Positions 2,654-47,178 of a stretch of DNA of 56,527 bases are shown here, in pieces. Position numbers and translations under genes: made by a program. The notes below the pieces were generated by a model. It did not search any database. It saw only the letters and a program-made list of their open reading frames with translations, and was not told the DNA's origin. Every line of letters starts with the position of its first letter. Positions within the stretch are counted from its first letter, which is position 1. The DNA comes from Asterionella formosa (lineage: Eukaryota), in NCBI GenBank assembly GCA_002256025.1, contig NKIB01013494.1:1-56527 (forward strand), given 5' to 3'.

Positions 2654-3568
2654 ATGTCGAACGCCAACTTTGAAAGCTGCCCGTCATGGGCACCAGTGCT
2701 GTAAGTTTCATTTCAAAAGAGGGATTCCATCGACGATGTACGTGACGAACGGAAGTAGCGTGCACGTCTGGTACTAAAGTCAAGTAGAAGCACGCTCAGA
2801 GCGTTGCATTGGCTCATGTTTTGGCCCTGTCTCTCGATTTGAGAATGTCAAGTGCGTCCATACTGTTGCCCTAGTTCCCAGCAACAATCACACACAGTCA
2901 TTATTGTTTCAGCGCTCTGCGTTCCATTTTGCATTTACTTTACGAATATTCTACCTTCACGTCATTTCTGACCTAGCTTTCTCTGTCTCTGATTCGAAAC
3001 AACCTAAACCAACAGGGGCTACCTCGGAGCCGCCTCTTGTATCATCCTTGCCAATGCTGGGGCCGCGTGGGGAACATACAAGTCCGGACTTGGCCTTTGT
3101 CAAATGGGTATCAACCATCCCAACGGTATCATCAAGAACTTGGTTGCTATCATTATGGCTGGGGTCCTCGGCATCTATGGCCTCATTGTGGCCATTATCA
3201 TTTCTGGAGGTGTCTCTAGCCCGAAGGCAGGAGTCGGAAATACATACTCGCAATTTACTGGCTGGGCTCATTTGTCCGCTGGTCTTTGTTGCGGATTATC
3301 CTGCTTGGCAGCTGGTGGAGCCACCGGGTGGGCCGGGGAATGTGGTATTATTGCCACTGGACTGAGAGCGGAATTGAACCATGCCAAGAACTCTCGTGGT
3401 ATGATGGGAATGGGAGGAAGTGGTGGAGAAATCGTCGATGAAGGAGATGCCGGCAAGATGTACATTGGATCCGTTACTATCCTTTCGTTTAGTGGAGCTA
3501 TTGGCCTTTATGGATTCATCATTGCATTGATTATCACGTCGTCGGACTATTACCCATGCGAATATTAA
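2654..3568 (+). CDS. V-type ATPase V0 proteolipid subunit c-like protein, 2 exons (2654-2700, 3016-3568), 199 aa
   Basis: ATG at 2654, GTAAGT donor at 2701, AACAG acceptor ending at 3015. Splicing gives MSNANFESCPSWAPVLGYLGAASCIILANAGAAWGTYKSG...IIMAGVLGIYGLIVAIII...AHLSAGLCCGLSCLAAG...GLYGFIIALII, the four-helix c-subunit pattern. Confidence 0.93.
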
Positions 3569-3854
3569 AAATTACATGAAAACAGAGCATAGCTCCAAAT
3601 TTTTTTGAGTACATGCCTAGGATTTGTGTGTCATAATAATATCGACTGTTACTACATTTTGGCATGGCACCTCGTCACAACAACTCACTGTATTCATGGA
3701 GTTTAGAATTACTTCAGTACAGCAAGCCTTGAATAGTGAATGACACAGGCATGAGTTCGATACCAACAAGGCTACTGGGTAGATTCTACTGGATTGAGTG
3801 AAGTCTCCTTGGTTTGTGAGAATGTGTTCTGTTCTATAAATCCAAGTGTTGATT

Positions 3855-4044
3855 TGTTAAAGTGAGCTCATCTACCGGTACGTAGTTAGGACTCGGAGTC
3901 AAACGAGTCAAACGATTCGAATGAGTCCACTTTGATGCACCAAGCTCTCATCAACCACACATTATACCTTGTTACTCCGACTATAATGACCCAGACAATA
4001 TAGGCTATTTCGGAAGACCAATACAAAAAGGTAATACTTTAACA
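3855..4044 (+). repeat. 5' LTR (190 bp) of the second Copia element
   Basis: Starts TGTTAAAGT and ends ACTTTAACA (perfect 9-bp inverted termini). The gag ATG follows at 4073. The last ~20 bp recur at 7043-7062. Confidence 0.8.
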
Positions 4045-7000
4045 CGTTCATAAACGGACTTATGTGTTTAATATGTCTACAGAAATGTCTGAAGAGAGCA
4101 TGAGGCTCATCAAGTTTGATGGCAACGAAACGAACTGGTACCAGTGGAGCGTTAAAACGCTTGCTCTGGCGAAGGCAAGAGGATTCCAAACGATGTACTC
4201 CAAGAACCACAACCCGTGTTCTGACGAAGAGTACGAAGTCAAGACAGACAAAGGAGTCAGGGCTATCTACGAGGCCAACGACAAGGCGTACCAGTTGCTC
4301 ATCATGAGCTGCACCGGAATCGCCTTTGGACTCGTAAACCAAGCCAAAACGAAAACGTTGATCGATGGCGATGCATATATGGCGTGGAAGAACCTCGAAG
4401 CGAGGTATGTCCCCCATTCTGTGTCGGACCTGATCCAGATGGCAAGCGATTTCAACAAATGCAAGCTGAACGATAGCTCCTCTGATCCAGACGAATGGTT
4501 CATTGAGCTTGATCTAATACAAAGCAAGATGATGGCGATCGACCCGTCATTTGAGAAGAAAGAAATGGAAGTGATTGCGAACGTAATCGACAAGCTTCCA
4601 GTGGAGTACAGTGAGGTTGTAACAGTTGTCGAGGGCATGACAACGATCAGCCTCAACGAATTGAAAGGCAAGATCCGAGCATTCTACAAACGAAAGCCAA
4701 AGGGCACGAAGAGCACAAAGGAGATCGAACTATTCACGCAGAAATACAAAGGTATCTGCAAGAAGTGCGGCAAACAAGGGCACAAGGCCGATGTGTGCCG
4801 ATCGAAAACGAACACAAGCGGAACGAATGCAAACGGTATGAACGAAAAAAATGAGATAAAGTGCTATATTTGCAATAACCACGCGGCGAGAAAAAAAAAG
4901 AAACCAAATGTATGTCGGAATGTGCGAGGAGATTACTGGTATGGAGGCAACAGACGATATCCCCAGTACCATGGACGTCACGCAGAAAACTACAGAGACT
5001 ACTGCTGAAGAACTACTACGCGTGTGTTTCGTCCCTACAATGGAAGACGAGTGGTACAAAGACCAATACTGCACATCAAGCAACAGAACGGAGCGCTGGC
5101 TTGCGGACACTGGGGCTACCACGCACACCACTATGCCACTATGACTGACGAATACATGACAAACGTCGAAAATGTCAACGTCTCGGTCATTGTCGGTGAC
5201 GGTAAAGAGGTGGTATGCACGAAACAAGGTGATTTTCTGATTATCAATAAAACGTGCTCCATGTTACTACGCAAGGTACTCTACACTCCACACTTCCACA
5301 AGAATATCGTCAGCATCGGGCAATTTGTCAAGAACGGAGGGTGCGAGGCACGCATGAAGGGGTCTGAGTTGAGTCTACATAAGGAAGGGTACAACAACGA
5401 ACTAACCTTTTCTTGTGAGGATCAAGGCGTCCTTTACTACTTCAAGGGAAAACGTAACCTACAATCCGAAATGGTCTTGTCTATCCACGACTTGACAACA
5501 AACCGTACACCTGATCCTACTCCAACAAATACCAAGACAGTGACGCAACTTCCTACGGCAAAAACTACCAAGAAACCAACGCAAATTGACATCAATGAGG
5601 CCCACGACAAATATGGCCACATCAGCGAGGCATCCCTTCGCGCAACGCTAAAGTCCCTCGGTATTGAACCTACGGGCAAGATTCAGTCGTGTGAAGGCTG
5701 CGCACTAGCTAAGGCAAAGGCCAAAGCGGTACCTAAAGTCACGACCCTCAAGGCCTCTACTCCTGCTGAACGATTGTACGTGGATATTTCAGGTCCCTAC
5801 AAGAAATCTCTAATTGGAAGCAACTACTGGATTCTATTTGTGGATCAGTACACAGGCAAGGCATGGAGTCATTTTGTTAACAAGAAGAGTCTTTTGTCGA
5901 GCGTCGCAGATGCCCTATTGACTACACTCAAGTCAGCGGGCTATGTAGTACGTCGTGGAACGAAAATTTGTGACGATACGAGACCGAGCATGCGCCTCCA
6001 TGTTCAGCGCAAAAATTGTCAGACGAATACCAGGGGCTACTGTGGGCCAAGAGTGTCCACATGCACACGCGACTAACGAACTCTGTCGCTAACTCGAATA
6101 CGGGAAAATGCCCCGATTGGCTTTTCTACGGCTTTCAGCCTAAGATTTATCCTCACCTGATTCAGTTTGGCAGGGTGGGTGGGCCACGATTCAGACGCCA
6201 AGGCAGAAACTAACCCCAAAAAGTGTCAAATGTGTCATGCTTGGAAACAGCCATGACCACGCCGGTGATACCTACCGCATGTACAACGTTACAACGAAAA
6301 AGGTCATCAACACAAGAGACCTTAAATGGGCCGACTGGCATGGAAATGCCAAACCCACAGCGGACATGGACGAATTCACCACAGACGGATCCGGTATAGA
6401 AGAGGAATTCGACACTCCTACTAAACCTACCAACGCAATGCCTCCTGACGAGCAAGGGGCTACTACACTACTACCAACGAAACAAGACGATCCCAGTACT
6501 CCCAAGGGAATGAGCTTTGCGGATTCCGTCGCAGGTACAAAGCTCGATCGAGAAATGAATAGGCCATCTACAGGCTTTGTGACCTCACCTACTCCTACTC
6601 GTGCAGGCACACGTCAGCAATCATCCGCAGCACGCACGCTAATATTGGATGATGACACCATCGAAGATACCAACGAAGAGCACCAACCTAGTGAGAAAGC
6701 ACACTCAACAAGCATAGCTTCTGAACCACTGGAACCCAAGAGCTACAAGCAGGCACTATTAAGTAACGAAAAAGACGAATGGACTAAGGCAATCAAAGCA
6801 GAGATTGAAAACTTCTACTCCCGCAAAGTGTGGAAAGTACATCCTCGTAAGAATCTAAACGGATGAAAGCTACTTGGAGCAAAATGGGTATTTAAAAAAT
6901 GAAGGAGCACGACAACACTACGCGCTACAAGGGCCGTATTGTGGTAAAAGGCTACGTGCAGATACCAGGTGTTGACTTCACAGATTCATTTGCACCTGTT

Positions 7001-13477: not shown

Positions 13478-14509
13478 TCAGTTTGTAGACAATGATTTCA
13501 GAATGATATCATACATGTAAAAGGTGACTGAATGATTCAAGGCGGCCCTCAACATTTTGGGAGTAAGTCCATCAAAAAAGGCACTAACTCCACCTTGCCT
13601 ATAAAGTTGTGCTGCCACACTCCATGATGATACAGTGGACCCTCCTTCTGTATTTTGCACCAATGTCTTGACAACATCAATGGGATACACAGGAATCCAA
13701 CTTGCCATACCTGACAGGGCCCCATTGACCAGTGGTGCTGCATGTCCCAGCCATACTGCCATAGCCGTTTGACTCAACAATCCATACACAACAAAATAAA
13801 TCCCATATGAGGGCACTTCACGTGCCATTGTTGGACCCAACCCCCGTCCCAATAGCCCTCGGATGCCTTCCTTGGTCAATACAGCGTTAGCGCAGTCCAA
13901 TTCATTGGTATACAAGTCCGAGGCTTGCATCATAACCTTGATACGTTCCATGGGAGTTACAAGAAAACTCGTTAAGAATCCAGCATAAAACGCTGCCAGT
14001 ATCAATGGGATGATCGGATTAGCCCAAAACACATGCATGTCATTCAACGTTTGGAACATAAAGGCATTTGCTCCAAAGGCTGCCGCTTTAATAATGGCCT
14101 GGCCTGCCATCATGCCGCGGACACCCCCAAAGAATCCACGGATGCCGTCGGTTTCGTAAATAAGTTTCGTGATTTGGATCATGTTCATGGACGCCGTATC
14201 AGAATGATTTTTGGACGCTTGTTGTCCAATCACCTGGGCTTTGGTTTTAAGTGTATCGAGAGGAAAGGCGACGCCTACTCCAATCGCTCCAGCAATACTA
14301 CCAGCGAGTACGGAATGGATAGCAGGTGAGAGGAACAGTGCTGTTGCCCCGCCTCGTGGAATGGTAGCAAGCATGGAAACGCCAACTGTCGAGCACGATT
14401 CAGTTGGACCACGTTTATTGATAGGAGATCCAAGGGCAGAGGCGGTAATATTCCGTGATAGTAACCATACGGTGCACAGCTTGTTTCCTAACCTTATCAT
14501 GGTCCACAT
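13478..14509 (-). CDS. Mitochondrial carrier (SLC25) family protein, carnitine/basic-amino-acid-carrier-like, with N-terminal extension
   Basis: Three Px[DE]xx[KR] signatures (PLDTLKTK, PMERIKV, PIDVVKT), plus GLGPTMAREVPSYGIYF and GLTPKMLRA. Uninterrupted 343-aa ORF. Confidence 0.93.
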   Translation of the reverse strand: MWTMIRLGNKLCTVWLLSRNITASALGSPINKRGPTESCSTVGVSMLATIPRGGATALFLSPAIHSVLAGSIAGAIGVGVAFPLDTLKTKAQVIGQQASKNHSDTASMNMIQITKLIYETDGIRGFFGGVRGMMAGQAIIKAAAFGANAFMFQTLNDMHVFWANPIIPLILAAFYAGFLTSFLVTPMERIKVMMQASDLYTNELDCANAVLTKEGIRGLLGRGLGPTMAREVPSYGIYFVVYGLLSQTAMAVWLGHAAPLVNGALSGMASWIPVYPIDVVKTLVQNTEGGSTVSSWSVAAQLYRQGGVSAFFDGLTPKMLRAALNHSVTFYMYDIILKSLSTN

Positions 14510-15169
14510 CGTTCGCTGCCTCGTTCACAGAAACACTCTGCTCTGTCGACGACAAATAAAACAACAATGTGAGCATAAACGGAATTAGAGTATAGTATTA
14601 CACTTTAGATAAGGTTGTCCCAGGGGTTGCGGTATCTGGTAAACACCAGTTCGGCCCTCAGGATGATACTGGTATCTGGTACCTCGTACACTGGTACCTA
14701 CCGATGATGTACGTACGTGGTACCGGGTACATCGTACACAGGAAAAGCAGGGAGGCTAATAATGTCCCTGTCACCCTTCGTAGTCGTATAAATGATAAAT
14801 ATGACAGTCCCGTATGTTAAAAAAAAAGAGTTTTCATTTCAGTATTACAGGTAACCAATGGGACTCCAGCACCAGGGTACCAAGTACGTCACTCAACCAT
14901 CCCTCATATTCCAGCAAGGGAAGTAACCTGGTACCAGGTAGTCTACAGAAAAATGTGGAACATATATGGTTGTCAAGAATATAGCATCAATGGCTATAAT
15001 GAGTCACAAGGACTGTGGACTCAACTATAGTCCAATGAGTCAAATGGTGCGTTCCCATGTCAAGAAGCTTGCTAACGAGATTGATGTCTTAGATCAATCA
15101 GAAGAAGGTTTACATCAACGAAAAGGGAACACGAAGAACAGGTTCTCGAAGTGTGATGAATGGGATTGA

Positions 15170-21613: not shown

Positions 21614-21823
21614 TACCGGTAATTAAAATTTGGGTTTCAGGGCGGCGTGCACAATACCACATGTTTACAATTGTACAATGATACGACACAACAGTCCTCG
21701 TCAAACTCACTCACTCACTCGATACATGATTACCGTAATGCAGTTCAGATCAAAAATAAGTTCAACTACCAAAAGTCACAACGCACGGACTCATCAATCA
21801 ATCCCCCTGTAATACTTGCTACC

Positions 21824-22957
21824 ATGGAATTGTTGCTGAAACGAACCAAGACGAAGAAACAGCAAACCCGACGAATCAGCGTTTATACGCTGTTTGTCCT
21901 TCTGCTAGTGGGTTGTCGTTTAGTATGGATTGCTTTCGTGCATATATTCCGATCTCATTATAATGGCAGAAAAATACAGCAACAACAAGTACTCATTACC
22001 GACAACAACACCAAGCACATCTCACTGACGAAGAAAGACTCCATACTCCGCGCAGCTATGGTAGAACATGAAACCAACAAGCAAATAAAACGAGGAATAA
22101 TATTAGGTGTTCAGGGGCACCCACGTCAACAACAACGTCACAGTACCACCCACTACACCGAGCCTCATGTCATTCCCAATATTCTCATCTTTACACACTC
22201 CACCAACCTCCTTCTACCCAACAGCAATCTCACCGGCCAAGATGCAGCACTGTACACAAATGTGCAGCGGACCATTCAGTTTCATCCCAATGCATCTGTC
22301 CGATTTCTGACTGATGAAGATTGCCTTGCATCTCTTCAAAATGTCATGGGGATCGACTCGCCAATGTTGCAATACTTTAGAAAAGAACCTCTAGGGATGT
22401 TCAAGGCCGATATTTGTCGAGGTGCGGCCTTGTATGAATCGGGGGGATTATACTTTGATGTGGACGTTCAAGCACGGATGTCCATGTGGGATGTTATAGA
22501 GCCATCGACACAATTTTGTGTCCCACTGGTCCATGTGGCTTCCAAGTATCCTGGAAACTACTTTCAAGCATTCATTGCCATCACACCTCGAAATCCGATT
22601 ATGAAACGATACTTGGAATTATTTCTACAACACTATGAAGGTAGTTTGGTCCAAGCAGGTCCCTTGGGTGTTATTTTATTGAAATTGGCTCATGATCAAG
22701 TTCTGCAGGAGCAGGATAATATCAACACCAACACTACCACGCTGTGGCAAGAAGTCTTGTATCGATCTCAGCTATTTCCCAACGTCCCCCCTCCCAATTG
22801 GGGAACACGACGGGCCTGTAGATTTGTTGTGGTGGCCAATAAAAAACGACCCTTTGTAGTTCCATTATATTCTCGTACCAAAGGATCAAGAATGTGTGGT
22901 GGCGTTGACTCAACCTTGTCAATTGCACATCATCCTGGGAACAATAAATTACCATAG
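21824..22957 (+). CDS. DxD-motif glycosyltransferase (GT32/OCH1-like sugar-binding domain), type II membrane protein
   Basis: First ATG at 21824, basic N-tail, TM helix (VYTLFVLLLVGCRLVWIAFVHIF). Then IPNILIFTH, FKADICRGAALYESGGLYFDVDV and FQAFIAITPRNPIM. Confidence 0.88.
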   Translation: MELLLKRTKTKKQQTRRISVYTLFVLLLVGCRLVWIAFVHIFRSHYNGRKIQQQQVLITDNNTKHISLTKKDSILRAAMVEHETNKQIKRGIILGVQGHPRQQQRHSTTHYTEPHVIPNILIFTHSTNLLLPNSNLTGQDAALYTNVQRTIQFHPNASVRFLTDEDCLASLQNVMGIDSPMLQYFRKEPLGMFKADICRGAALYESGGLYFDVDVQARMSMWDVIEPSTQFCVPLVHVASKYPGNYFQAFIAITPRNPIMKRYLELFLQHYEGSLVQAGPLGVILLKLAHDQVLQEQDNINTNTTTLWQEVLYRSQLFPNVPPPNWGTRRACRFVVVANKKRPFVVPLYSRTKGSRMCGGVDSTLSIAHHPGNNKLP

Positions 22958-35600: not shown

Positions 35601-37492
35601 ATAAGCAAAACATGTTTGGTTCCCCTGTTGCTCCTCCTTGCTCCTGGTGCTGCAATCTTCCATTGGGTTTTGATCTACAAGGTTAAGGATGAAGATAACT
35701 ATCGTAAAAAGGCAAGAGCTGTTTGTGATGGTTCTACTCGTGGTGGCCAAGCACAAATCTATGGATCCACTTATGCTCCCACCCCTGATATGACCGATCT
35801 TCGCCTCTTCTTTGGCCTTGCCGCTCTGCCTTGAAAACAAGTTAATCTATGGAGCTGATGTTTCTAATGCTTTCGCTGAAGCTGCTGCTCCTGTACAACA
35901 ATATTTTATGCGAGTTGATGTTCACTTTCGTGATTGGTGGGCCAGCAAAGGGCGTTCCCCCTTTCCAGCAGATTTTGTCATTACCATTCTCAAGAATCTC
36001 CAAGGTCACCCTGAAGCCCCTTGTAAGTGTTCTCGTCACATTGACAAAATCCTTCAAACTTACCAGTTTATTCCTACTGTCCATGCTCCCTGCATTTATC
36101 GTGCCACTATCAACAAAGAAAATGTCTTATTTCTTCGCCAAGTGGATCATTTTGCCGTTGCCACTAACAATGAACAGCTTTACACTCAACTTTGCAACTC
36201 TCTTGACACAAACCTTCTTGTACCCATGAGACGCCAAGGACTCTTGACACACTATAATGGTCTTGACATTGTTCAAACTCGCACCTTCATCACTGTACAC
36301 TGTGGTTCTTATATCCGCAAACTTCTTTCTAATCATGGTTGGGATGATATGAAACCCACACATTTGCCCATGCCTGCTGATAATGAATATATCCGCACCC
36401 TTGACACTGCTACTGCTCCTACCACTGAGACCGAATGTCATGCCTTAGAGCAAGCCCATTTCCAATATCGTGGTGCTATTGGGGAGCTTATCTGGGCTAT
36501 GATCACTTGTCGCCCTGAACTCAGTTTTCCAGTGGTCAAACTCAGTCAGTTGTCAACCAGTTCTTCAGCTTTACATTACACTGCTGTTAAGCGGGTCTTC
36601 CGTTACCTTTCTGGTATGATTGACCATGGTCTCACCTATTGGCATACTGCACCCCACTCCACTCTCCCTTTTAATCTCCTCCTCCTTTACTTACCCGTCC
36701 AAATGATCAACATCTCCTCCATGATGTTTCTGCTGCCACTGCGCATTACTCTCCATTTGCTGTATTTGGGTATGTTGATTCTGACTGGGCTATGGATATC
36801 CGTCGTCACCATCGTTCCATATCAGGGATTGTCTTCAAACTTGCTGGTGCTGCAATTGCCTGGAAATTTCGTGTCCAACCCACAGTCTCCCTCAGTCCCA
36901 CTGAAGCTGAATTTCTTGCTGCAAGTGATGCTGGGAAAATGGCCCTCTACCTTCGCTCCATCTTGTTGGATGAACTTCATGTTCCCCAGACATATGCTAC
37001 CCTACTCTATGAGGACAACCGTGGTGCCCTTTTGATGGCTCATGCAGGCCAACCTACGAAACAGTCACGGCACATTGGCATTCGTCATTATGCCTAACTG
37101 ATTGGGTTGAACGTGATCTTGTTGCTCTGGAGGATGTTCCCTTATGGTTCAACGCTGCTGATGCCATTACAAAGCAAACTGGAGGTATCCTGTTTGCCCG
37201 CCATCTTGATACTATCACTGGCCGCCTTGGTCCACCTTATGTCTCCTCTGTCCCACTTGACTCTTCCCTCAAAACTGCCCTTTGAGCGAGGGGGGGGGGG
37301 TGTTAGTGTGACATACATAGTTCTGTACTTTGTGGTACTGTGATGTATGTACTAGTAGTGATGTACTACTGTAATACAGTACGGTATGTACTTGATATGC
37401 ATCTATACTATATCTACCTACATTCCTATCGTAGAAGAATATCCTGAGTAATATTATAATTTTGCATGTCATCTTTTGATATTGCATTGACA
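32670..37492 (+). mobile_element. Ty1/Copia (CoDi-like) LTR retrotransposon, 5'-truncated, with frameshifts
   Basis: Gag knuckle QCDACGTWGH; degenerate protease NIGANIC; WHQQLGH..CKIC; integrase HLDFGF, LRLDQGGEL, QNGKVER. RT KARAVCDGS, ADVSNAF, LQGHPEA, RQVDHF. RNase H DSDWA, SPTEAEF, EDNRGA, ADAITK. PPT at 37284-37300. Confidence 0.95.
37301..37492 (+). repeat. 3' LTR (~192 bp) of the third Copia element
   Basis: TGTTAGTG directly after the PPT GAGCGAGGGGGGGGGGG. Candidate end CATTGACA (6/8 inverted match). The right boundary is inferred. Confidence 0.65.
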
Positions 37493-37939
37493 CCAGGTAC
37501 CAGTACCGGAATTTACACTTGACACAGTGCTCGTACGCATACTGTACACGATAACCCAGGGTTGAGTCCTCCCTACACTCGAACACATACAGTAGCTTGT
37601 CCGGACTATTATTACATGGACGAGTTTTCGAGCCTCAAAGGCGCGACTAGAAATTTAGCCTGCCTTTGATACTGGCGAGCACTAAGCTAAAGCTTCGTTT
37701 TCTCCCATCCTCAGATATAGCTTTTGTCTACTCTTATAAGGCGATTTCAATTAGTCTAGTACAAATTACCTTACTGCTCGCTACTTTGTTGAAGACAATG
37801 CATGTGAATTCCCATGAATTCCTTTCTTTTTTTACACTGGTTGTTAGAATCATCATTATTGCCTCGTCCTTCGTTACATGAATAAGAATACCGAGCCATT
37901 CATCAAACACACAGATAAGCAATCGTATTCTACATTGTG

Positions 37940-38782
37940 ATGCAATTACAGCACATTGTTGTACAGCCTGGCTGGGTGTTATTGCTACAGCTACTTTTCC
38001 CCCTCGGTGTCGTGTCTTTCAGTGCCTTCGCTTCACTTCATAACAAGATGACACCAGAAAAAACATGGGAACCACAAGCCGCGGATGATATTATAGAACG
38101 ATTGAGGACAAAAGTCACTGTTACAACTTCCACACCTTTTATGGTAGCTCTTGTTGGAATTCCGGGATCTGGAAAATCCACGTCAGCTCACTTAGTTGCA
38201 GAGGAACTGTCAACCCGCCATGGCAAAACACCCATGATTATGCCCCATGATGGTTATCATATTGCACTTGCCGAATTACCCAATGCTGATGCCATTTATC
38301 GGCGAGGTGCACCAGATACATTTGATGTTGATGCCTTGATTATTGATTTGAAACGCATCAAGTATGGTGGTATTGATGAACCAACCATTTCTGTTCCTGG
38401 ATTTGATCATGCTATAGGAGACCCTACTCCTAGTGCTCATACGTTTGATCGAGCACGCCATGATATTGTTATTTGTGAAGGACTATACCTACTACATGAT
38501 AGTAATGGGTGGGAGCGTATGAAGCAGGAATTCGATGTTAGTATTTATATTGATTCCAATGTCGATCGATGCATCGAACGACTCAAGGTGAGAAATTCGG
38601 TCATTCCTGGGTATACGCTGGAGGAGTTGTTGTTGCGATGTGATGCTGTGGATCGAGTCAATGCCATGACAGTACAGCGTAGCAGTGCACATAGAGCTGA
38701 TTTAGTTGTGATCAGTTATGATGAACATCCTACGGTATCCCGAAGTGGTACTACCGGTTTATCTTCCAGTCAAGTAGAATAA
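37940..38782 (+). CDS. P-loop kinase of the uridine kinase/pantothenate kinase/phosphoribulokinase superfamily (YggC-like), with signal peptide
   Basis: Walker A GIPGSGKST, PHDGYH, RRGAPDTFD, VPGFDHAIGDP, VICEGLYLL. Hydrophobic N-terminus ending VVSFSAF, suggesting bipartite plastid targeting. Confidence 0.9.
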   Translation: MQLQHIVVQPGWVLLLQLLFPLGVVSFSAFASLHNKMTPEKTWEPQAADDIIERLRTKVTVTTSTPFMVALVGIPGSGKSTSAHLVAEELSTRHGKTPMIMPHDGYHIALAELPNADAIYRRGAPDTFDVDALIIDLKRIKYGGIDEPTISVPGFDHAIGDPTPSAHTFDRARHDIVICEGLYLLHDSNGWERMKQEFDVSIYIDSNVDRCIERLKVRNSVIPGYTLEELLLRCDAVDRVNAMTVQRSSAHRADLVVISYDEHPTVSRSGTTGLSSSQVE

Positions 38783-39491: not shown

Positions 39492-42400
39492 TTAAATTCT
39501 GAATTCAGAACTTTTTCCTTCTTTCAGTTCATCATATGCTTCTTTCCATTCTTGAGCCTCACGCTGAGCAATGTCATATTTTGCCTTGTGGACAGCAAGA
39601 TCCTCTTTGACTCGTTGCAACTCTGCTTGAAGAGCTAGCTTCTCGGCCATATCCCCCTCTTGTTCAATCTTGCGAAATTCCTTCATTCGAATAATCTCTA
39701 AAGATTTCGATGTCTTTGAAGTAATTTCAGCAGAAAGCTGCTGACACAGCGCGACAAGTTCGGCATCTGTGTTCTGCACCACCCCATCAGCTAGGATATT
39801 TAACTTCTCTTCTGATTCTTTTCTGGCTTGGTCTCGCCCAGAGCTATTATTTTGGAAGGGATTCAAAAATCCTAATTCTTGATTTAAGAGATTCTCTGCA
39901 AGTGCTTGCGCAATTTTTAGTTTTTCATCAAGGACTGCAACCTTCTTTCGTTCTTGTTCTACTTCATGCGTATGCATGACATTAGCAGCAATCATTTGAG
40001 CACGAGCCTCATCACGCTCAGCCATAACTGTCACCAGAGCATCATGTAATGAATCACGCAAGATGTTGGTAATTGCCGAAGGCAACAACGGCTCCAAGTG
40101 CAGAAACGAAGACGAATGATGAGACAACTGCTGGCTCAATTTTCGCTGGGGTAACGTATACGAAGCCGTATTTGGGGAAAAGGCTCTCTTCGATTCTGCT
40201 CTAAGCAGCCCTGTTTGAATGGCAGTAATCATTGCTAAGATGTCTTCTCCAGTGGAAGACTTTTGATTGGGTACAAGGCGTTTGTCCAGGACGCCATTCA
40301 ACTTATCATCAGCCAACGGCTCAAATTTTGATGGTGAGCTTACTGTTCCATGGTTGCAGTCAATCTTGAAAAAGTCAGCCATTGCCCTCCGAGCTTCGTC
40401 AGGCAGTGGACACCTGAGCGTCGAACTCAAAAATTCAGTTAAAACCTCACATTTGTACTCAAGAAAAGCAGGGGTATGTTCAATGTGCATAGATGCATCG
40501 ATGAGACCACCTAACAAAGTGCCAGTGAGCTTGACGCAGTCCAAAGTTGAGAGTCCAAGGGTGCTCGCAAGATCTTGCCTCATCTGTGAACCAGCATCCC
40601 GAACCTCGTCAAAGCTCGTGCACATCATCTGAGGGATAACAGAAGCTACAGCCTCTGAAATGGACATGTAAAGGGCCAACACATCATCGAACGTGCACAG
40701 AATCGAAGTTTGATTTTGGAATGGCTTTGATTCTCCACTGAACTGGGGAATCAGTGTGATTTTGTATCCATCCTGGGCAGTGGTCAATTTAGCACAGACA
40801 TCATCGTATTTGCTAGGTTTGGCTCCATCAGACTGGTCGAACCCTCCCTCCAGGGAACTTTCTATGACCACCTCTTGGTTTCTTTGACTTTTCTGTGGCG
40901 CATTTGGCACGATTTCGCCAGGCAGAAAGATGTGGGGGGCAACGTGAACAATCCAATCACCACTCATTTTCTCCAAAATACTGTCAGGGATCGGGATGAG
41001 AGATTCGCCGAAATTTCCAGCTGGTCTATCGCCGATGCGAACGCCTCTGAGCTTTGTTCCCTCCAGGTCCACATATGAGGCATCACTACTCATCATCGAT
41101 TTTGAAAATCGACTTCTCACCGAGAACCTCTCTCCACCTACCTCTTCTTGCTTGAGTTGGTCTCTCTTTTGTGATTTTGCCCTTTCTCCACTCATCGAGA
41201 CCCCAAACTTCTTGACTCTTGTTCCAAAGCGAGGACGGGATGCACCTGATTCAATCCAATGCTCATCTTCATCTCCTTTCAGCACTGCCATGTCCACCTG
41301 GGGCAGACCCATCTCGTGCACATCGTTAGTGACATTGTTAAGTGTTGCAGAACAAGTGACAGTGGCTTGATGATAGTCTAAGTTCACAAGCTTCCTGACC
41401 TCTTGTAAAATCTCTGGCCTTTTGGGATTCAAGTCCTCAGGGCATATTGATTGGTCATCGATGGCAGTTTCCCATGACTTGGAGGGCTGTACCAGAATCG
41501 AATTAACATGTGACTCATGATGAACCTCCACTATTTCAGTTTGTTGTTTCAGACTATACGCTACTCCGTCAATTTTACTTTTGAAATCGCCGCCAAGACC
41601 ACCTTCCTCAGGATGACCATCATGCTTCTGTACTCCAATTCGGAGTTTTCTCCGTTGCTCGGCGACTGCTTTGGTCTTTTCTTTTGCCGCTTGCACGACA
41701 CCGCCGACACGGATTTTGGCGGTTGAGCGCAACGAAGCGAAGCGTTTCCCCATCTGTTGACCCCGACCAAGATTGGATGAATCCTCGTCATCATTGCTTG
41801 TGAAAGATGGGACTCCTTTATCAATCAAAAGTGAGGAGGTGCTTGTTTGGAGTTCCCTTTCAGCATTGCATGACAACGATTGTTGAGTAGTGGCTTTTGT
41901 GTCGCCCTGTTTGGCCTGGAACTCCGAATCACTTGCAACAACTCCTTCATGGCAAAAATTGTCGTGACATGTGTCTTCCACTGACTCATTCAGCTCATCT
42001 TTTCCTGAGTTGACTACTAGTGTCGTTCGATTTCGGCTCATGCGGGAACCAGCAAGCTTGCTCTTGGCGGCAGCAGTTAGGTTTGATAAGCTAGCACGTA
42101 CTTTATCACCTCGACGAGGGGTGGATGTCGCAACTGGGAAATCCGTATCTGACGACGACGTGCGAAACCTCATTTGAACATTCATGTTCTCATTATGAGA
42201 TTCATGGAACATAGAGGAGGCACCATCCTCCCATTCAGGAGAATTTTCAAACGGGCTGGCATTTTTGACCCGGTAGTCATTGTGTTGAGAATACAAAGTG
42301 ATGGCAAAGTTCAGTTCTTTGACCCAAAATTCGTACTCTTTTGTATTTAAAGCAATAAAAAGTCGTGCTTTTCTCGTTTTTTCAACGATTGCAAAGCCAT

Positions 42401-45400
42401 GTCTAGCATCACTCATGCGTCGTCCGCCGGTAAGGACATGCAAACTAGCACCTTGGAGGCAAACGATATCCAAGGGAGTTGGCTTTCCAGGATCTGAGTA
42501 AACGATAAATAAACTTTTTCTCAGAACCGCATAGTATTGCCACATATTGACGACTTTCGGGGCACGTTGCCCATGAGTATGAATTCCCCCCATACGAAGC
42601 CATCCCGCTGCTTGCGATGCTACTAAACCAAGAGCAGCAAGCCGTGCTCGCTCCTTAGAGAATACTTGGAATTCAAGATCTTTTATTCTCAATTGTTGAT
42701 GTCTCATTGCTGACTTTGTCTGTAAGTCATGGGTAGCAACCAAATTGCTGAGACTCCGCAAATATGTTCTGGTTGCATCTAGTGAGCTCACGGTATCAAT
42801 CGGATCGAATTTCTCTTTTGTCTCATCACGTTTTCCATTTGTCGATTCAATGGTCTTCATTGCTGCAATTACATTTGCGATTCGCTGCTTTGCTATTTTG
42901 GTTCTGTCAACAAAGAGAAGTACCGCACCGTAAAAGGTGGCTAAATTATCAAGATCCGTCACTGAGAGGATAGAATCAGCTAGCGACAAATCAAGTTTAG
43001 AAGGAATATACATTCCACGTAGGGTGAACATCGGTATGAGCGTGTCTGTCAGTTTTCCTCTTGACTTCGTTGGTTCAGCTGCATGCAGACTTTGAACACT
43101 AATTATACTGTGTTGGAATCCAGGGATCATGTCAACAAATAGCTCACTCCATTGTGATCCGCACTGGCCAAGGACAGCGAGAATAGTGGAGTCTTCGATG
43201 GAGTGAAGGTCTGCTAAATAGCTCGTCAAAACAGAAGCCTCTCGGACGAATAAACCAAACCCAAGGGCACTGGAAACAATATCCTTTGGCCGCTTCTGGG
43301 GCACAAACACAATCAAATTGGTAACTCTAACGCGAGCTAGGAATGTGGAGGTATTTTCCGGAAGCTGTGATAATATCAATGTCTCCATTAATTCCTCGAC
43401 ATTCTTCGCTTCACGCGGTTCCTTAACTCCCTCATTGTCCGGTCCTCCTGGTTTCTCGAAAAAGAAGCAACTACTTGCCACAGAAGAAAAAAGGGCACCA
43501 ATTGAACCAGATGGAAATTCCATTGCTTTAATTTGTCCATTCGAATCCTTCTTTCTAACCACTGGGAGTAATCCAGTTGGAAGCAGCAGTGCTTCGACTA
43601 AAAGGAGTACGAAGGATTCAACTTCATGTACATGTAAATTGATTGCGCCCCCTGAGCAAATGTCTAATGATAGAGCGATTTCGAGAAAAGTTCCAGTTCG
43701 TTTCTCGAATCGTACCTTAATATCATCTGACTTAGATGCATCGGGCAACACATGGTTTCCCATTGCAACAAGCTCAACCATACTGGGGTGAAAATCAGGC
43801 TCAGGAGTTCTCTGTTTTCCTCTTTCACTTATCTCAACCTTGTCATCAAGAAAAAAATCTGCTTCTCCTTCGTTGTCGCGCTCTCCCTTCTCTCGGCAAT
43901 AAATGGGGTAAAGGTCACATTCTTTGTCAAAATCGCAAATATCAATGTTAATGACAGTCAGAGAACCCTTAAGTATCGTTCTGCTTTCGTCGTTCGCAAT
44001 AAACCTCTCAAAGCCCAAGTCAAGTGTTCGGAGTTGTAACTTCAGTAATTGAATAAGGGGGATGACGCTTTCTTCAATGGGTAAGTTGTCACCCTCGTTT
44101 ACAGACGCTCTGAATTTGCTCTTCATAACGACATTTTGTCGCCAAATGCTGACGCTCAGTTCTGATAGTTGTATGCAGAACGAAAAAGTCAGCCCTCCTG
44201 TTTCTCTACTCTTCTTGTATTGTCGCTTTGTCAATACATATCGGCTGCTAGTAGCGTTTGCTGCACAGTCCAAATTTGCCTTGGAAGCTTCGAACTCCAT
44301 CCCGCCATGGATTTTCGAGATGTAGGCCAAAGTTGTCTTGACGGTGTTTGCATGGTACATAACTGTGCTAAGGGCGCCGCTCAGAAGGTCAAAGTCGACA
44401 TTGATACCTATTCTGTTAATCTGAATGGATGAAAGGAAAACCAGCTTCATCGGGTTGCTTTCTCCGGTATCGGGTGATTCCCCTTCAAAGCAGGCAAAAA
44501 AATTAAACTCCAAGGGCTCTATAAGCTCTTGCGGTTTGGCATGATTACAAAATGGAATGATCGGAACTAATTTCATGGAAAAATCTCGAATTGTGATCTG
44601 AGATCTGAAAGTAGAGACGATTCTCCTAAATGCGTTTTGACGAATGAGCGGATCCTCTGCTTTCTCAAGTTTGTAGCATATATCAGAAGGATCGTTCGGG
44701 AAGTCAATTAGTGTCGAGCCAGCCGGGTTATCCCCATTGATCGAAGATCCTATTTTCCCAGTCAAGCAAATTCGAGGCAAGGCTGAAGAAATTACGAGCA
44801 TAAATTCGCCCACGGCCATTGTCAAATCGCAAGATCGCACATCCTTATTAATGGCAGCTGGGAGACGAACTTGAAGGTTTAATATTCTCGCTGTTACATT
44901 GAAGTGGTCTGAAGAAATAAATTCATTTTCGTCCAAGGTAATCTCGGGTGTTTCTTGAACGTGATTAGCGAAATTCAACGGTTGGGATGGATGCATCAAC
45001 ATTTCTGTCATTAATTCATCACTCCAATCACCTGAATTCCATCGCGGATCAAAGCCCCCTCCTCCTTCATTCATGGAGAAACGTAAAAGTCGACACCAAG
45101 AATCAATTGCCAGAGTAATTTCAAATTGGTCAAGCCCGATTTCGTTGAACACCATAATCTCTTCCTGACCTAGACATGCTATATTTTCCACGAAGTCTAC
45201 GGTAGACTTTAAACCGACAGTCTGGGATGGAAACGTGTTACGCAATCGCAATGGATCTGGTCGAATGCATCGATCTTCAAAAAGGGGGAAATGTTCATCA
45301 CATGGAATTTCAGTGAAGGCAGGTGATGGACACTCAACGGGTCTACCTTGAAAGTCAAGATGTTTCCCACCAAGAATGAGAAAACTTATTTTTTGGCCGT

Positions 45401-46931
45401 ATTTTTCTTGCAATGACATGTAAGATAATGACATTTGAAAACAAACACCTTTTTCACCTGTTGTTCCAGGCCACATCATTTCAGCGATCAAGCCCTTGAC
45501 ATCGATTTGAGCATAACTATTATCCGGTGCAATATTGCGCTCATATATTCCCCGAACGGTGCAATGGTTAATAGAGAAACTGAAGGAAATTTTTTCATGA
45601 ATGACAATGCCAGTTGGCAAGACAATTACGGGTCGGTCACAATTCTTGCGTTTGGGGGCTTTTTCCGAATAGGTCGGCGACGACGTCGATGTCGCGCTTT
45701 CCTCTGCAGAAATTTTAACTGTTGATTCATCTGCATTTATTTTTAAACCACCTGTATTCTCTTCATCTTCTGTCTTCATCACCTCCATACTTCCCAAACC
45801 AAATTCACCGAAGGCAACATCTTCACGTTCGGTTGTTCGGCAATCCTCGTCGGATTCTTCGTCATTCTCCCCATCGCCAACTAAGCCTTCCTCCATGACA
45901 AGGGGAGAATGTGTTCTTGACTCAACACCACTTCCGCTCTTACCTAATACGATTTCTACCGTTGCTCCACTTCCACCACTTACAGGGAATTTCGATCGTG
46001 TTCCCACCAAAGGATCTTCAAATGCCCGATCCTTGGTGAAGCAATATCGAAAACCAGAAATAGCATGCACAAGCATGCCAACATCTTCCGCTTCTATGCA
46101 AAATTCGATTTTATTGACAGTAGCATCCATTTGAATGGACAATATTGCAGCATCTCGGACCCTTTTGTGAAACATGAGTTGTATTTCCACATTGGCTTCG
46201 GGGACAAGAAGGATCTCATTACTAATGCTGGTTTCGTCTTTCATGCAATCAACAGATGTGAAGGCCACTTCCATACCCATGCTAACTTTTTTGTATATGC
46301 TCAAGGTTTGTTGTTGGGGTCTTCCTTGAAAGGTATTGTGTTTCCAACAATCATCGGGCGAAGCCGGATTTCCCAATTCATTTACGGACTGATACAACAC
46401 ATGGCGCAAAAAAATGTGAAGGCATGGTGGCGTCCATGGGCCATTTTGTCTCGTCTTAAATTTACCTCTAGGTTGAAATGAAATTTTTACCGATCGGATG
46501 TCAATTTTTAAATTGTCCATGATCCGGTCCATCAAAAAGTAGGAACCTCGAGGTTTCTTGTTGCTCTTGTTGAGTTCCTGATGATATTCTTGTCGAGAGA
46601 GTTGCCTGAGAGTCCTTCGTTGTTCTTTAGGAATGTAATGCAAGGGTTCGACCAGGACAGCACGGACATTATCCACGACGACGCAGAGGGGTGCCTTTTT
46701 TAAATTGGCCCATGACGTTACGTGGAATGACAATTTTGAAATCTGAACCGATTCGAATTCGATGAACGGCGTTAGTTTGGCAATCAATTCATTCAAGACG
46801 CTGCAATTCAAGGACACATCCTTGATCTCTCCTTTCCCGTTCAATAGATTTGCGTTAACCTGTTCCTTACGAAAGCCGACAATGAACTTAGACAACTGCT
46901 CTTGAAAGATGCCAAGCACAAATTGCTCCAT
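39492..46931 (-). CDS. Large bridge-like lipid transfer protein candidate (Chorein_N, VPS13/UHRF1BP1-like) with PH domain and C-terminal coiled coil, 2479 aa
   Basis: N-terminus QEQLSKFIVGFRKEQVNANLLNGKGEIKDVSLN...WANLKKAPLCVVVDNV resembles Chorein_N. PH motifs GWLRM...WQYYAVLRKSLFIVY...LQGASL...EYEFWVKELNFAI at ~42300-42606. Heptad-rich C-terminus. Uninterrupted 7.4-kb ORF. Confidence 0.85.
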   Translation of the reverse strand: MEQFVLGIFQEQLSKFIVGFRKEQVNANLLNGKGEIKDVSLNCSVLNELIAKLTPFIEFESVQISKLSFHVTSWANLKKAPLCVVVDNVRAVLVEPLHYIPKEQRRTLRQLSRQEYHQELNKSNKKPRGSYFLMDRIMDNLKIDIRSVKISFQPRGKFKTRQNGPWTPPCLHIFLRHVLYQSVNELGNPASPDDCWKHNTFQGRPQQQTLSIYKKVSMGMEVAFTSVDCMKDETSISNEILLVPEANVEIQLMFHKRVRDAAILSIQMDATVNKIEFCIEAEDVGMLVHAISGFRYCFTKDRAFEDPLVGTRSKFPVSGGSGATVEIVLGKSGSGVESRTHSPLVMEEGLVGDGENDEESDEDCRTTEREDVAFGEFGLGSMEVMKTEDEENTGGLKINADESTVKISAEESATSTSSPTYSEKAPKRKNCDRPVIVLPTGIVIHEKISFSFSINHCTVRGIYERNIAPDNSYAQIDVKGLIAEMMWPGTTGEKGVCFQMSLSYMSLQEKYGQKISFLILGGKHLDFQGRPVECPSPAFTEIPCDEHFPLFEDRCIRPDPLRLRNTFPSQTVGLKSTVDFVENIACLGQEEIMVFNEIGLDQFEITLAIDSWCRLLRFSMNEGGGGFDPRWNSGDWSDELMTEMLMHPSQPLNFANHVQETPEITLDENEFISSDHFNVTARILNLQVRLPAAINKDVRSCDLTMAVGEFMLVISSALPRICLTGKIGSSINGDNPAGSTLIDFPNDPSDICYKLEKAEDPLIRQNAFRRIVSTFRSQITIRDFSMKLVPIIPFCNHAKPQELIEPLEFNFFACFEGESPDTGESNPMKLVFLSSIQINRIGINVDFDLLSGALSTVMYHANTVKTTLAYISKIHGGMEFEASKANLDCAANATSSRYVLTKRQYKKSRETGGLTFSFCIQLSELSVSIWRQNVVMKSKFRASVNEGDNLPIEESVIPLIQLLKLQLRTLDLGFERFIANDESRTILKGSLTVINIDICDFDKECDLYPIYCREKGERDNEGEADFFLDDKVEISERGKQRTPEPDFHPSMVELVAMGNHVLPDASKSDDIKVRFEKRTGTFLEIALSLDICSGGAINLHVHEVESFVLLLVEALLLPTGLLPVVRKKDSNGQIKAMEFPSGSIGALFSSVASSCFFFEKPGGPDNEGVKEPREAKNVEELMETLILSQLPENTSTFLARVRVTNLIVFVPQKRPKDIVSSALGFGLFVREASVLTSYLADLHSIEDSTILAVLGQCGSQWSELFVDMIPGFQHSIISVQSLHAAEPTKSRGKLTDTLIPMFTLRGMYIPSKLDLSLADSILSVTDLDNLATFYGAVLLFVDRTKIAKQRIANVIAAMKTIESTNGKRDETKEKFDPIDTVSSLDATRTYLRSLSNLVATHDLQTKSAMRHQQLRIKDLEFQVFSKERARLAALGLVASQAAGWLRMGGIHTHGQRAPKVVNMWQYYAVLRKSLFIVYSDPGKPTPLDIVCLQGASLHVLTGGRRMSDARHGFAIVEKTRKARLFIALNTKEYEFWVKELNFAITLYSQHNDYRVKNASPFENSPEWEDGASSMFHESHNENMNVQMRFRTSSSDTDFPVATSTPRRGDKVRASLSNLTAAAKSKLAGSRMSRNRTTLVVNSGKDELNESVEDTCHDNFCHEGVVASDSEFQAKQGDTKATTQQSLSCNAERELQTSTSSLLIDKGVPSFTSNDDEDSSNLGRGQQMGKRFASLRSTAKIRVGGVVQAAKEKTKAVAEQRRKLRIGVQKHDGHPEEGGLGGDFKSKIDGVAYSLKQQTEIVEVHHESHVNSILVQPSKSWETAIDDQSICPEDLNPKRPEILQEVRKLVNLDYHQATVTCSATLNNVTNDVHEMGLPQVDMAVLKGDEDEHWIESGASRPRFGTRVKKFGVSMSGERAKSQKRDQLKQEEVGGERFSVRSRFSKSMMSSDASYVDLEGTKLRGVRIGDRPAGNFGESLIPIPDSILEKMSGDWIVHVAPHIFLPGEIVPNAPQKSQRNQEVVIESSLEGGFDQSDGAKPSKYDDVCAKLTTAQDGYKITLIPQFSGESKPFQNQTSILCTFDDVLALYMSISEAVASVIPQMMCTSFDEVRDAGSQMRQDLASTLGLSTLDCVKLTGTLLGGLIDASMHIEHTPAFLEYKCEVLTEFLSSTLRCPLPDEARRAMADFFKIDCNHGTVSSPSKFEPLADDKLNGVLDKRLVPNQKSSTGEDILAMITAIQTGLLRAESKRAFSPNTASYTLPQRKLSQQLSHHSSSFLHLEPLLPSAITNILRDSLHDALVTVMAERDEARAQMIAANVMHTHEVEQERKKVAVLDEKLKIAQALAENLLNQELGFLNPFQNNSSGRDQARKESEEKLNILADGVVQNTDAELVALCQQLSAEITSKTSKSLEIIRMKEFRKIEQEGDMAEKLALQAELQRVKEDLAVHKAKYDIAQREAQEWKEAYDELKEGKSSEFRI

Positions 46932-47178
46932 TTGCAATTGTTTGTTGATGTAGCCAAGTGTTCTCAGTAGCTATGCATGCGCTTCTGCGGGGTGAATACT
47001 GTCGGTGGCCTCAAAGTTGCCCTTGTTGACTGCTGTGATGAGTGCTGTGTGATTCCGGAGCAATCCGAAAGGAACGACTATAGCTAATATACCGTATAGC
47101 CGTATCGCTATGTGATTATTACAACAATATATTCATAGAGAGGGCGAAAGCGGCCCCATGAGTTTTGGTACCGTACCA

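Follow-up and report, generated by a model that had tools for sequence, protein, structure and literature searches.

A c-type V-ATPase proteolipid of 199 residues from the diatom Asterionella formosa carries a glycine at the position of helix 4 where subunit c has its proton-carrying glutamate. Sequence and fold both assign the protein to the PF00137 superfamily, yet it lacks the functional hallmark of subunit c, and the family to which it belongs (hereafter clade A) is an ancient, conserved, expressed and selectively maintained c-type proteolipid of diatoms and of Parmales, the diatom sister group. To our knowledge, the helix-4 glutamate of c is regarded as indispensable in every eukaryotic V-ATPase proteolipid, an assumption contradicted by the presence, in ecologically dominant algae, of two whole gene families that lack this residue, are under strong purifying selection and occur beside canonical c. 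The finding is testable in laboratory diatoms and brings within direct experimental reach an old question, whether a V-ATPase can have its H+/ATP ratio or its resting state determined by a mixture of rotor subunits that carry protons and others that are blank. Public annotation ('V-type H+-transporting ATPase proteolipid subunit') masks the difference.

Gene structure and confirmation of the glycine codon

The window, that is, the whole 56,527-nucleotide stretch of contig NKIB01013494.1 that was analysed, contains the gene as two exons separated by an intron (Table 1). The frame of exon 2 lies uninterrupted within the open reading frame 3008-3568, and the splice joint (GT..AG) is present in one contig each of three RNA runs (X8, X12 and X18), the RNA contigs ending or joining precisely at base 2700. 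The gene is thus transcribed and spliced as modelled, and the intactness of reading frame and intron claimed in a preliminary description of this DNA is borne out, the frame being open to its TAA codon. Protein analyses were carried out on P0001, the 183 residues of exon 2 encoded by 3017-3565.

Table 1. Features of the proteolipid gene and of the remainder of the window
Feature	Position	Strand	Description
Exon 1	2654..2700	+	ATG at 2654; encodes MSNANFESCPSWAPVL; last codon completed by G3016
Exon 1, coding content	2654..2700	+	Start codon, MSNANFESCPSWAPV and two bases of a Leu codon; lumenal N-terminus with CPxWAP motif
Intron	2701..3015	+	315 bases, GTAAGT...CAG; 2700>3016 joint found in RNA contigs
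Exon 2	3016..3568	+	All four helices; TAA at 3566-3568
Helix 2	3122..3211	+	P0001 residues 36-65; outer ring helix; reads AIIMAGVLGIYG, without Glu
Helix 3-4 loop insert	3365..3451	+	About 29-30 residues, cytoplasmic, RAELNHAKNSRGMMGMGGSGGEIVDEGDA; canonical c has no counterpart
Helix 4	3443..3544	+	P0001 residues 143-176; outer ring helix; reads KMYIGSVTILSFSGAIGLYGFIIALIITS
GGA codon	3494..3496	+	Gly160 of P0001; aligns with the proton-carrying Glu (E137 in yeast c)
Copia-type LTR retrotransposon, degraded	4043..6866	+	Directly downstream of the gene, in three ORFs: gag (PF14223); Pol beta-barrel and GAG-pre-integrase domain; retroviral SH3-like domain
Mitochondrial carrier	13478..14524	-	Three repeats, E 1.5e-51
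Glycosyltransferase	21623..22957	+	DXD type
Reverse-transcriptase fragment, second	35794..37035	+	RVT_2, E 3.6e-5, under Pfam's cutoff
PRK/uridine-kinase-family protein	37919..38782	+
Long ORF	39492..46970	-	Unbroken, 2,492 residues; no Pfam family at E <= 0.001

None of the neighbouring mitochondrial carrier, glycosyltransferase and PRK/uridine-kinase genes is V-ATPase-related.

Relatives of the gene are encoded by 13 metagenome loci, from which L010 (protein identical to that of L009) and L012 and L013 (other family) were left out, so that the codon and selection analyses comprised 11 orthologous coding sequences including that of the window. The intron position is common to four genomic orthologues (L003, L004, L008 and L009), in which an upstream exon ending in ...AP.L at a GTAAGT or GTGAGT donor lies 129-345 bases before the AG acceptor. 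The sequences of L005, L006 and L011 are continuous, as expected of transcripts, and a pattern search upstream in L001, L002 and L007 did not find exon 1.

Positions 3479-3514 (ATC CTT TCG TTT AGT GGA GCT ATT GGC CTT TAT GGA) translate to ILSFSGAIGLYG, and the glycine of the first GGA aligns opposite the Glu of ILIFAEALALYG in citrus c and of LILIFSEVLGLYG in yeast c' (HMMER, solved V-ATPase c chains). Sequence, alignment and DNA and RNA contigs thus agree with the initial observation that the proton-carrying Glu of helix 4 is absent. No Asp or Glu occurs in any predicted membrane-helix core of P0001 (sequence and AF2 helices); helix 2 is likewise without Glu, hence a c''-type swap of the carboxylate, already discounted in the preliminary description, does not apply.

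At least half of the sampled words were contained in 16 sequencing runs, all of them freshwater, lake or algal metagenomes or metatranscriptomes, and the base was checked in one DNA run from another sample (X2) and in the three RNA runs, which come from two studies. X2 covers 3150-3657, X12 covers 3016-3554 and X18 covers 3466-3584, each with 0 differences, and X8 covers 3016-3633 with 1 difference, at 3603. Within 1,101 bases, two differences occur and no others: an intronic A>C at 3006, in unspliced contigs, and, past the stop, T>G at 3603. The codon at 3494-3496 is spanned by the DNA run and by all three RNA runs, with no alternative letter. Since independent DNA and RNA runs carry matching letters, the original caveat that GGA lies a single base from GAA is settled. 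The evidence from the runs consists of contigs, not reads, and speaks for presence, not for expression level or rare variants; RNA contig depth, although in the thousands, is unfit for ranking expression.

Family, fold and distinguishing features

P0001 matches the Pfam family PF00137 (ATP-synt_C) with 56.9 bits (cutoff 24) in two stretches. Among solved structures, its closest relatives are V-ATPase c chains, headed by citrus c (E 9.4e-30), with yeast c' and c next and mammalian c after them; c'' chains match far more weakly (E 2.5e-11 or weaker). An alignment-based AlphaFold (AF2) model of P0001 (pLDDT 84.5, pTM 0.76) displays a four-helix double hairpin with helices at residues 2-31, 36-65, 79-129 and 143-176, which Foldseek places on the c chains of the yeast, citrus, bovine, porcine, rat and human enzymes, with a target TM of 0.83-0.90 and an rmsd of 1.3-2.7 for yeast, citrus, bovine and human c. 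Helix 3 of the model reaches residue 129, about 13 residues beyond canonical c and into the cytoplasm, and is followed by a low-confidence stretch (132-138). A single-sequence AlphaFold model of the orthologue P0007 (pLDDT 50.2) was discarded as unusable. Matches in the ESM Atlas were to proteolipid clusters only, Bacillariophyta being the commonest source.

The features that set clade A apart were delineated in an alignment of 118 sequences, comprising 42 of clade A, 12 long-loop forms that bear Glu, 33 of a second Glu-less family (clade B) and 31 of canonical c. The cytoplasmic insert corresponds to gap columns 118-145, which are empty in 96-100% of the 31 canonical rows, and follows the pattern RAELNHAK...G-rich...DEGDA in clade A. 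Relative to canonical c, helix 4 of clade A has the substitutions M152S, L154T, I157S, A159S, E160G and L167F, the polar ones all lying in the half adjoining the cytoplasmic loop; helix periodicity, rather than the model coordinates, suggests that S157 would share a helical face with position 160. Elsewhere, Ala replaces the Pro of IPVVMAG, and Trp occupies helix-1 positions 18 and 21. The ring-packing glycines are well preserved across the 118 rows: G19 of helix 1 and G93, G100 and G104 of helix 3 are invariant, and G15, G24 and G26 of helix 1 and G89 of helix 3 are conserved in at least 90%.

Conservation and selection in clade A

Gly occupies the site in 108 of the best 120 homologues of P0001, of which a further 11 have Glu (in MLIFSEALALYG) and one ends before the site. 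The motif of these 108 is ILSFSGAIGLYG in 97, ILSFAGAIGLYG in 9 and ILSFGGAIGLYG and ILSFAGALGLYG in one each. Named Gly-bearing organisms include the diatoms Attheya, Leptocylindrus, Corethron, Eucampia, Chaetoceros, Craspedostauros, Cyclophora and Dactyliosolen and the Parmales Triparma verrucosa, T. strigata, T. laevis and 'scaly parma'. Among the matches listed, no named clade A homologue falls outside diatoms and Parmales; since only about a quarter of the proteins carry names, the true taxonomic range of the clade may be wider.

Across the 11 coding sequences, the Gly codon is GGA in six and GGT in five, and Ser157 is encoded by TCG, TCA, TCC, TCT, AGC and AGT (both TCN and AGY). The dN/dS ratio has a median of 0.084 and a maximum of 0.121 in the 17 of 55 pairs with computable dS, the other 38 being saturated at synonymous sites and yielding no usable dS; in the ten pairs that include the window, pN is 0.11-0.21. 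Mean entropy in clade A amounts to 0.26 bits in helices 2 and 4, 0.70 in helix 1 and 0.48 in helix 3, and invariant columns number 16 of 30 in helix 2 and 20 of 31 in helix 4. The outer, stator- and lipid-facing helices 2 and 4 are the most constrained parts of the protein.

Comparison with other diatoms and an estimate of dN/dS had both been proposed as checks in the preliminary description. The first finds the glycine conserved and the second finds purifying selection, and the gene described there stands as an intact, spliced and expressed paralogue of the c subunit, without a carboxylate in helix 2 or 4, that is neither an error nor a private allele. Both conditions named there as refuting the observation turned out in its favour, the sequencing runs having GGA instead of GAA and the orthologues Gly instead of Glu. 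The core of that reading is supported; of the roles offered there, altered coupling, regulation and a pump-independent function are all still candidates. The loop insert, the polar substitutions, the insert-bearing sister group that retains Glu and the second Glu-less family go beyond that account.

Related proteolipids and loss of the glutamate

At least four classes of c-type proteolipid occur in diatoms, namely canonical c, long-loop forms with Glu, clade A and clade B. The canonical short-loop c of diatoms (for example, from Amphora coffeiformis, Nitzschia inconspicua, Chaetoceros and a Bacillariaceae MAG) bears Glu and is mutually 93-99% identical, and Glu is kept in 116 of the best 120 matches to it. 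The long-loop Glu forms fall into two groups, EL1 (P0098 and P0112-P0121, with named members from Chaetoceros dichaeta, Odontella aurita, Extubocellulus and Minutocellus) and EL2 (P0127 and P0336, with named members from Thalassiosira sp.). They are the nearest relatives of clade A (58-63% identity), with which they share the insert, a CPSWAP N-terminus, W18 and W21, A44 (EL1) and a C-terminal YxC motif, but from which they differ in having the canonical Glu-bearing helix 4. Since this insert-bearing sister keeps Glu, the insert alone is compatible with a proton-carrying subunit. Helix 4 of the long-loop Glu forms (P0098, P0112-P0121, P0127, P0336, P0124 and P0132) is invariant in 28 of 31 columns over 12 rows.

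Clade B (the P0129 family, P0340-P0458, with loci L012 and L013) lacks Glu in all of its best 120 matches, 64 of which have Gly and 56 Ser. Named members come from Fragilariopsis cylindrus, Cylindrotheca, Nitzschia, Seminavis robusta, Craspedostauros, Fistulifera, Epithemia, Attheya, Odontella, Cyclophora, Pseudo-nitzschia multiseries, Aulacoseira and Triparma retinervis. Like clade A, clade B has a long cytoplasmic loop, no Glu and polar residues around the lost site, here the uncharged Q156, N161 and T152 within a helix-4 pattern IQ[VI]FA[G/S]N..LYG (motif IQVFA[G/S]NLGLYG), but the two clades are merely 41-46% identical. Both are found together in Attheya septentrionalis, Craspedostauros australis and Cyclophora tenuis; within the genus Triparma, the two are represented by different species.

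In a quick maximum-likelihood tree (65 rows, 196 columns, no outgroup, with a long-branch warning), clade A forms a single group (SH-aLRT 100) joined to EL1 (99), and clade B groups with canonical c (99), along with two unnamed rows that bear Ser, a topology that implies two or more losses of Glu. When all Glu-less rows are constrained to a single clade, the log-likelihood falls by 49.6 (p-AU 0.0445), so that such a clade is marginally rejected, for a group that was named post hoc and in the presence of long branches. With the rejection marginal and the group so chosen, the case for independent losses leans more on shared residues: W18, W21, C28, H34, G37, A44 and E108 are common to clade A and EL1, and Y18, A21, L37, P44, D108 and R112 to clade B and canonical c. 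By tree and residues, clade B probably lost Glu independently of clade A.

Further unusual proteolipids were encountered. Four unnamed metagenome proteins (P0192, P0208, P0126 and P0122) have Ser or Gly at the Glu site, P0126 with a large insert after helix 2 and P0122 reading ILCFSSAIGLYG; given that their organisms are not known, the Glu-less state may extend beyond the named groups. P0130 (1,139 residues, about 15 repeats) and P0141 (631 residues, about 7) are very long multi-hairpin rotor subunits with AEALxIYG repeats. Nematodes, plants, algae and trypanosomatids contribute gene models of 300-360 residues that contain two c-subunit units (P0459-P0471 and P0125) and probably reflect either tandem genes that were fused or errors of modelling; in one Brugia model, Asp takes the place of Glu in one of the two units.

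A putative proton-blind rotor subunit

With Gly in place of Glu, no proton would be bound or carried at this site, and the clade A protein itself is, as judged from its sequence, unable to carry a proton by the known mechanism. Since the loss is ancient and conserved and the gene expressed, the protein must serve something besides proton carriage. The reading preferred here, to which a probability of roughly 45% is assigned, is that it is a putative member of the Vo rotor ring, in one or a few positions, where it would lower H+/ATP or alter the spacing of the carboxylates.

In such a ring, the clade A protein would sit beside Glu-bearing canonical c as a proton-blind position. Upon passing the essential Arg of subunit a, the blank subunit would hand over no proton, and S152, T154, S157 and S159, together with G160, would let the hydrated stator interface slide by without a charge partner. 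The ring would then move fewer protons per turn, with a changed angular spacing of carboxylates; 9 or 8 instead of 10, for example, would lower H+/ATP, which would thermodynamically permit a steeper pH gradient. The blank could also set a resting position of the rotor, and the long cytoplasmic insert would probably contact a lineage-specific partner or subunit d.

Several features argue for ring membership. The ring-packing glycines of helices 1 and 3 are retained; the high constraint on helices 2 and 4 is to be expected if these still meet subunit a; and the polar, uncharged neighbours of the lost Glu in both clade A and clade B would suit a helix that moves through the hydrated interface with subunit a rather than one buried in lipid. 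On the other hand, the extended inner helix 3 of the model could clash with the subunit d that caps the ring. The yeast enzyme also counts against a blank in the ring, as removal of Glu from a single-copy ring member is severely harmful: PMC8804929 describes no growth of the c'' variant E108G at pH 7 when Zn2+ or Ca2+ is present and takes from Hirata et al. (1997) that E108 is essential. The same paper reports that E108G still grows on YPD with Ca2+, where a 'switch' mutant fails, which suggests by analogy that a ring with one blank would not be wholly dead.

The broader proposition, that the V-ATPase rotors of diatoms and Parmales include a dedicated proton-blank subunit or two of them (clades A and B, arising from independent losses) and thereby move fewer protons per ATP, is doubtful. 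Should the blank-rotor reading hold, the pump could sustain a pH gradient that is steeper, as in the acidic silica deposition vesicle, for example, and the system would be the first natural eukaryotic case of H+/ATP tuning through rotor composition. According to PMC7972479 and PMC11387698, diatom V-ATPases acidify the silica deposition vesicle and are placed at plastid-surrounding membranes; a specialised rotor could therefore bear on silicification and carbon fixation. A K02155 V-ATPase subunit is among the 120 'siliceous cell wall-associated' reference proteins of PMC13403384, from which no link to clade A could be made, and a study of freshwater diatoms and pH (PMC12145874) mentions the V-type ATPase only at pathway level. 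A literature search, with most subscription journals outside its reach, returned no description of a natural Glu-less eukaryotic c paralogue.

Alternative readings

A role outside the pump is conceivable, if rather unlikely: clade A, alone or with clade B, might form a ring or oligomer of its own without V1 and act as a pore, as a fusion or scaffold element or as a carrier of another ligand in a lineage-specific membrane such as that of the silica deposition vesicle. The carboxylate is, after all, wholly absent, the cytoplasmic insert is lineage-specific, the named organisms among the matches listed come only from two silica-forming sister lineages, and isolated yeast c-rings are reported as large-conductance pores in PMC4838861. 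The Glu-bearing sister, however, shares both the insert and the N-terminal motif, so that these features are not tied to lost pumping, and it is difficult to see why the lipid-exposed helices 2 and 4 should be almost invariant unless a protein partner slides along them; the link to silica, moreover, is inseparable from shared ancestry.

The protein might instead enter Vo rings in order to disable or park them, the blank stalling at subunit a and giving rise to proton-tight inactive Vo sectors or to low-activity pumps in certain compartments or cell-cycle stages. The strong loss of function of yeast c'' E108G under stringent conditions, and the argument that uneven Glu spacing helps to bring about autoinhibition in free Vo, both contained in PMC8804929, lend themselves to such a regulatory role, and the strongly constrained outer helices would fit ongoing contact with subunit a. 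A brake of this kind is nevertheless unlikely, as two Glu-less families, spread across diatoms and Parmales and present in the transcriptomes of many species, would seem a costly off-switch, reversible V1-Vo disassembly already fills that role in other eukaryotes, and the polar lining would appear suited to passage rather than to blockage.

A sequencing error, private allele or decaying pseudogene, which the single base between GGA and GAA and the degraded Copia-type element directly downstream might have suggested, is refuted with a negligible residual probability by the identical letters in an independent DNA sample and three correctly spliced RNA runs, the intact frame, the homologue counts and a dN/dS of about 0.08.

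Comparison with known systems

Canonical c (yeast Vma3, human ATP6V0C, plant VHA-c; KEGG K02155) is likewise a four-helix double hairpin and has in common with the clade A protein a short lumenal N-terminus with CPxxAP, glycine-rich helices 1 and 3, MAGVLGIYG in helix 2 and a helix 4 ending in GLYG, the identity to diatom canonical c being about 45-53%. Unlike canonical c, the clade A protein has Gly for Glu, Ser or Thr at positions 152, 154, 157 and 159, an insert of about 29 residues, Ala for Pro and two Trp residues in helix 1. Subunit c'' (Vma16/ATP6V0B) has a helix-2 Glu (E108 in yeast) and an extra N-terminal helix, both of which the window protein lacks, just 16 residues preceding its helix 1. 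Fungal c' (Vma11) keeps the helix-4 Glu (E145), opposite which the window protein has Gly, and clade A groups with the diatom long-loop paralogues in a tree that included no fungal c' row. The protein is neither c'' nor fungal c'.

A c1 subunit with a missing ion site is said to be part of a working mixed rotor ring in Acetobacterium woodii, reportedly described by Matthies et al. in 2014. This bacterial subunit is Na+-coupled and, unlike clade A, still has one site per subunit. The F-type c1 subunit (F/V-hybrid c-ring, PDB 4BEM) is, like clade A, a natural four-helix rotor subunit, and 4bem_J appears at rank 44 of the Foldseek fold matches (E 1.6e-4); the absence of the carboxylate is alike in principle only, the two proteins not being homologous at the subfamily level. 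In yeast c'', a single ring member with its carboxylate placed differently, E108G constitutes an engineered Glu-to-Gly blank; it is strongly harmful there, whereas the diatom Gly is conserved.
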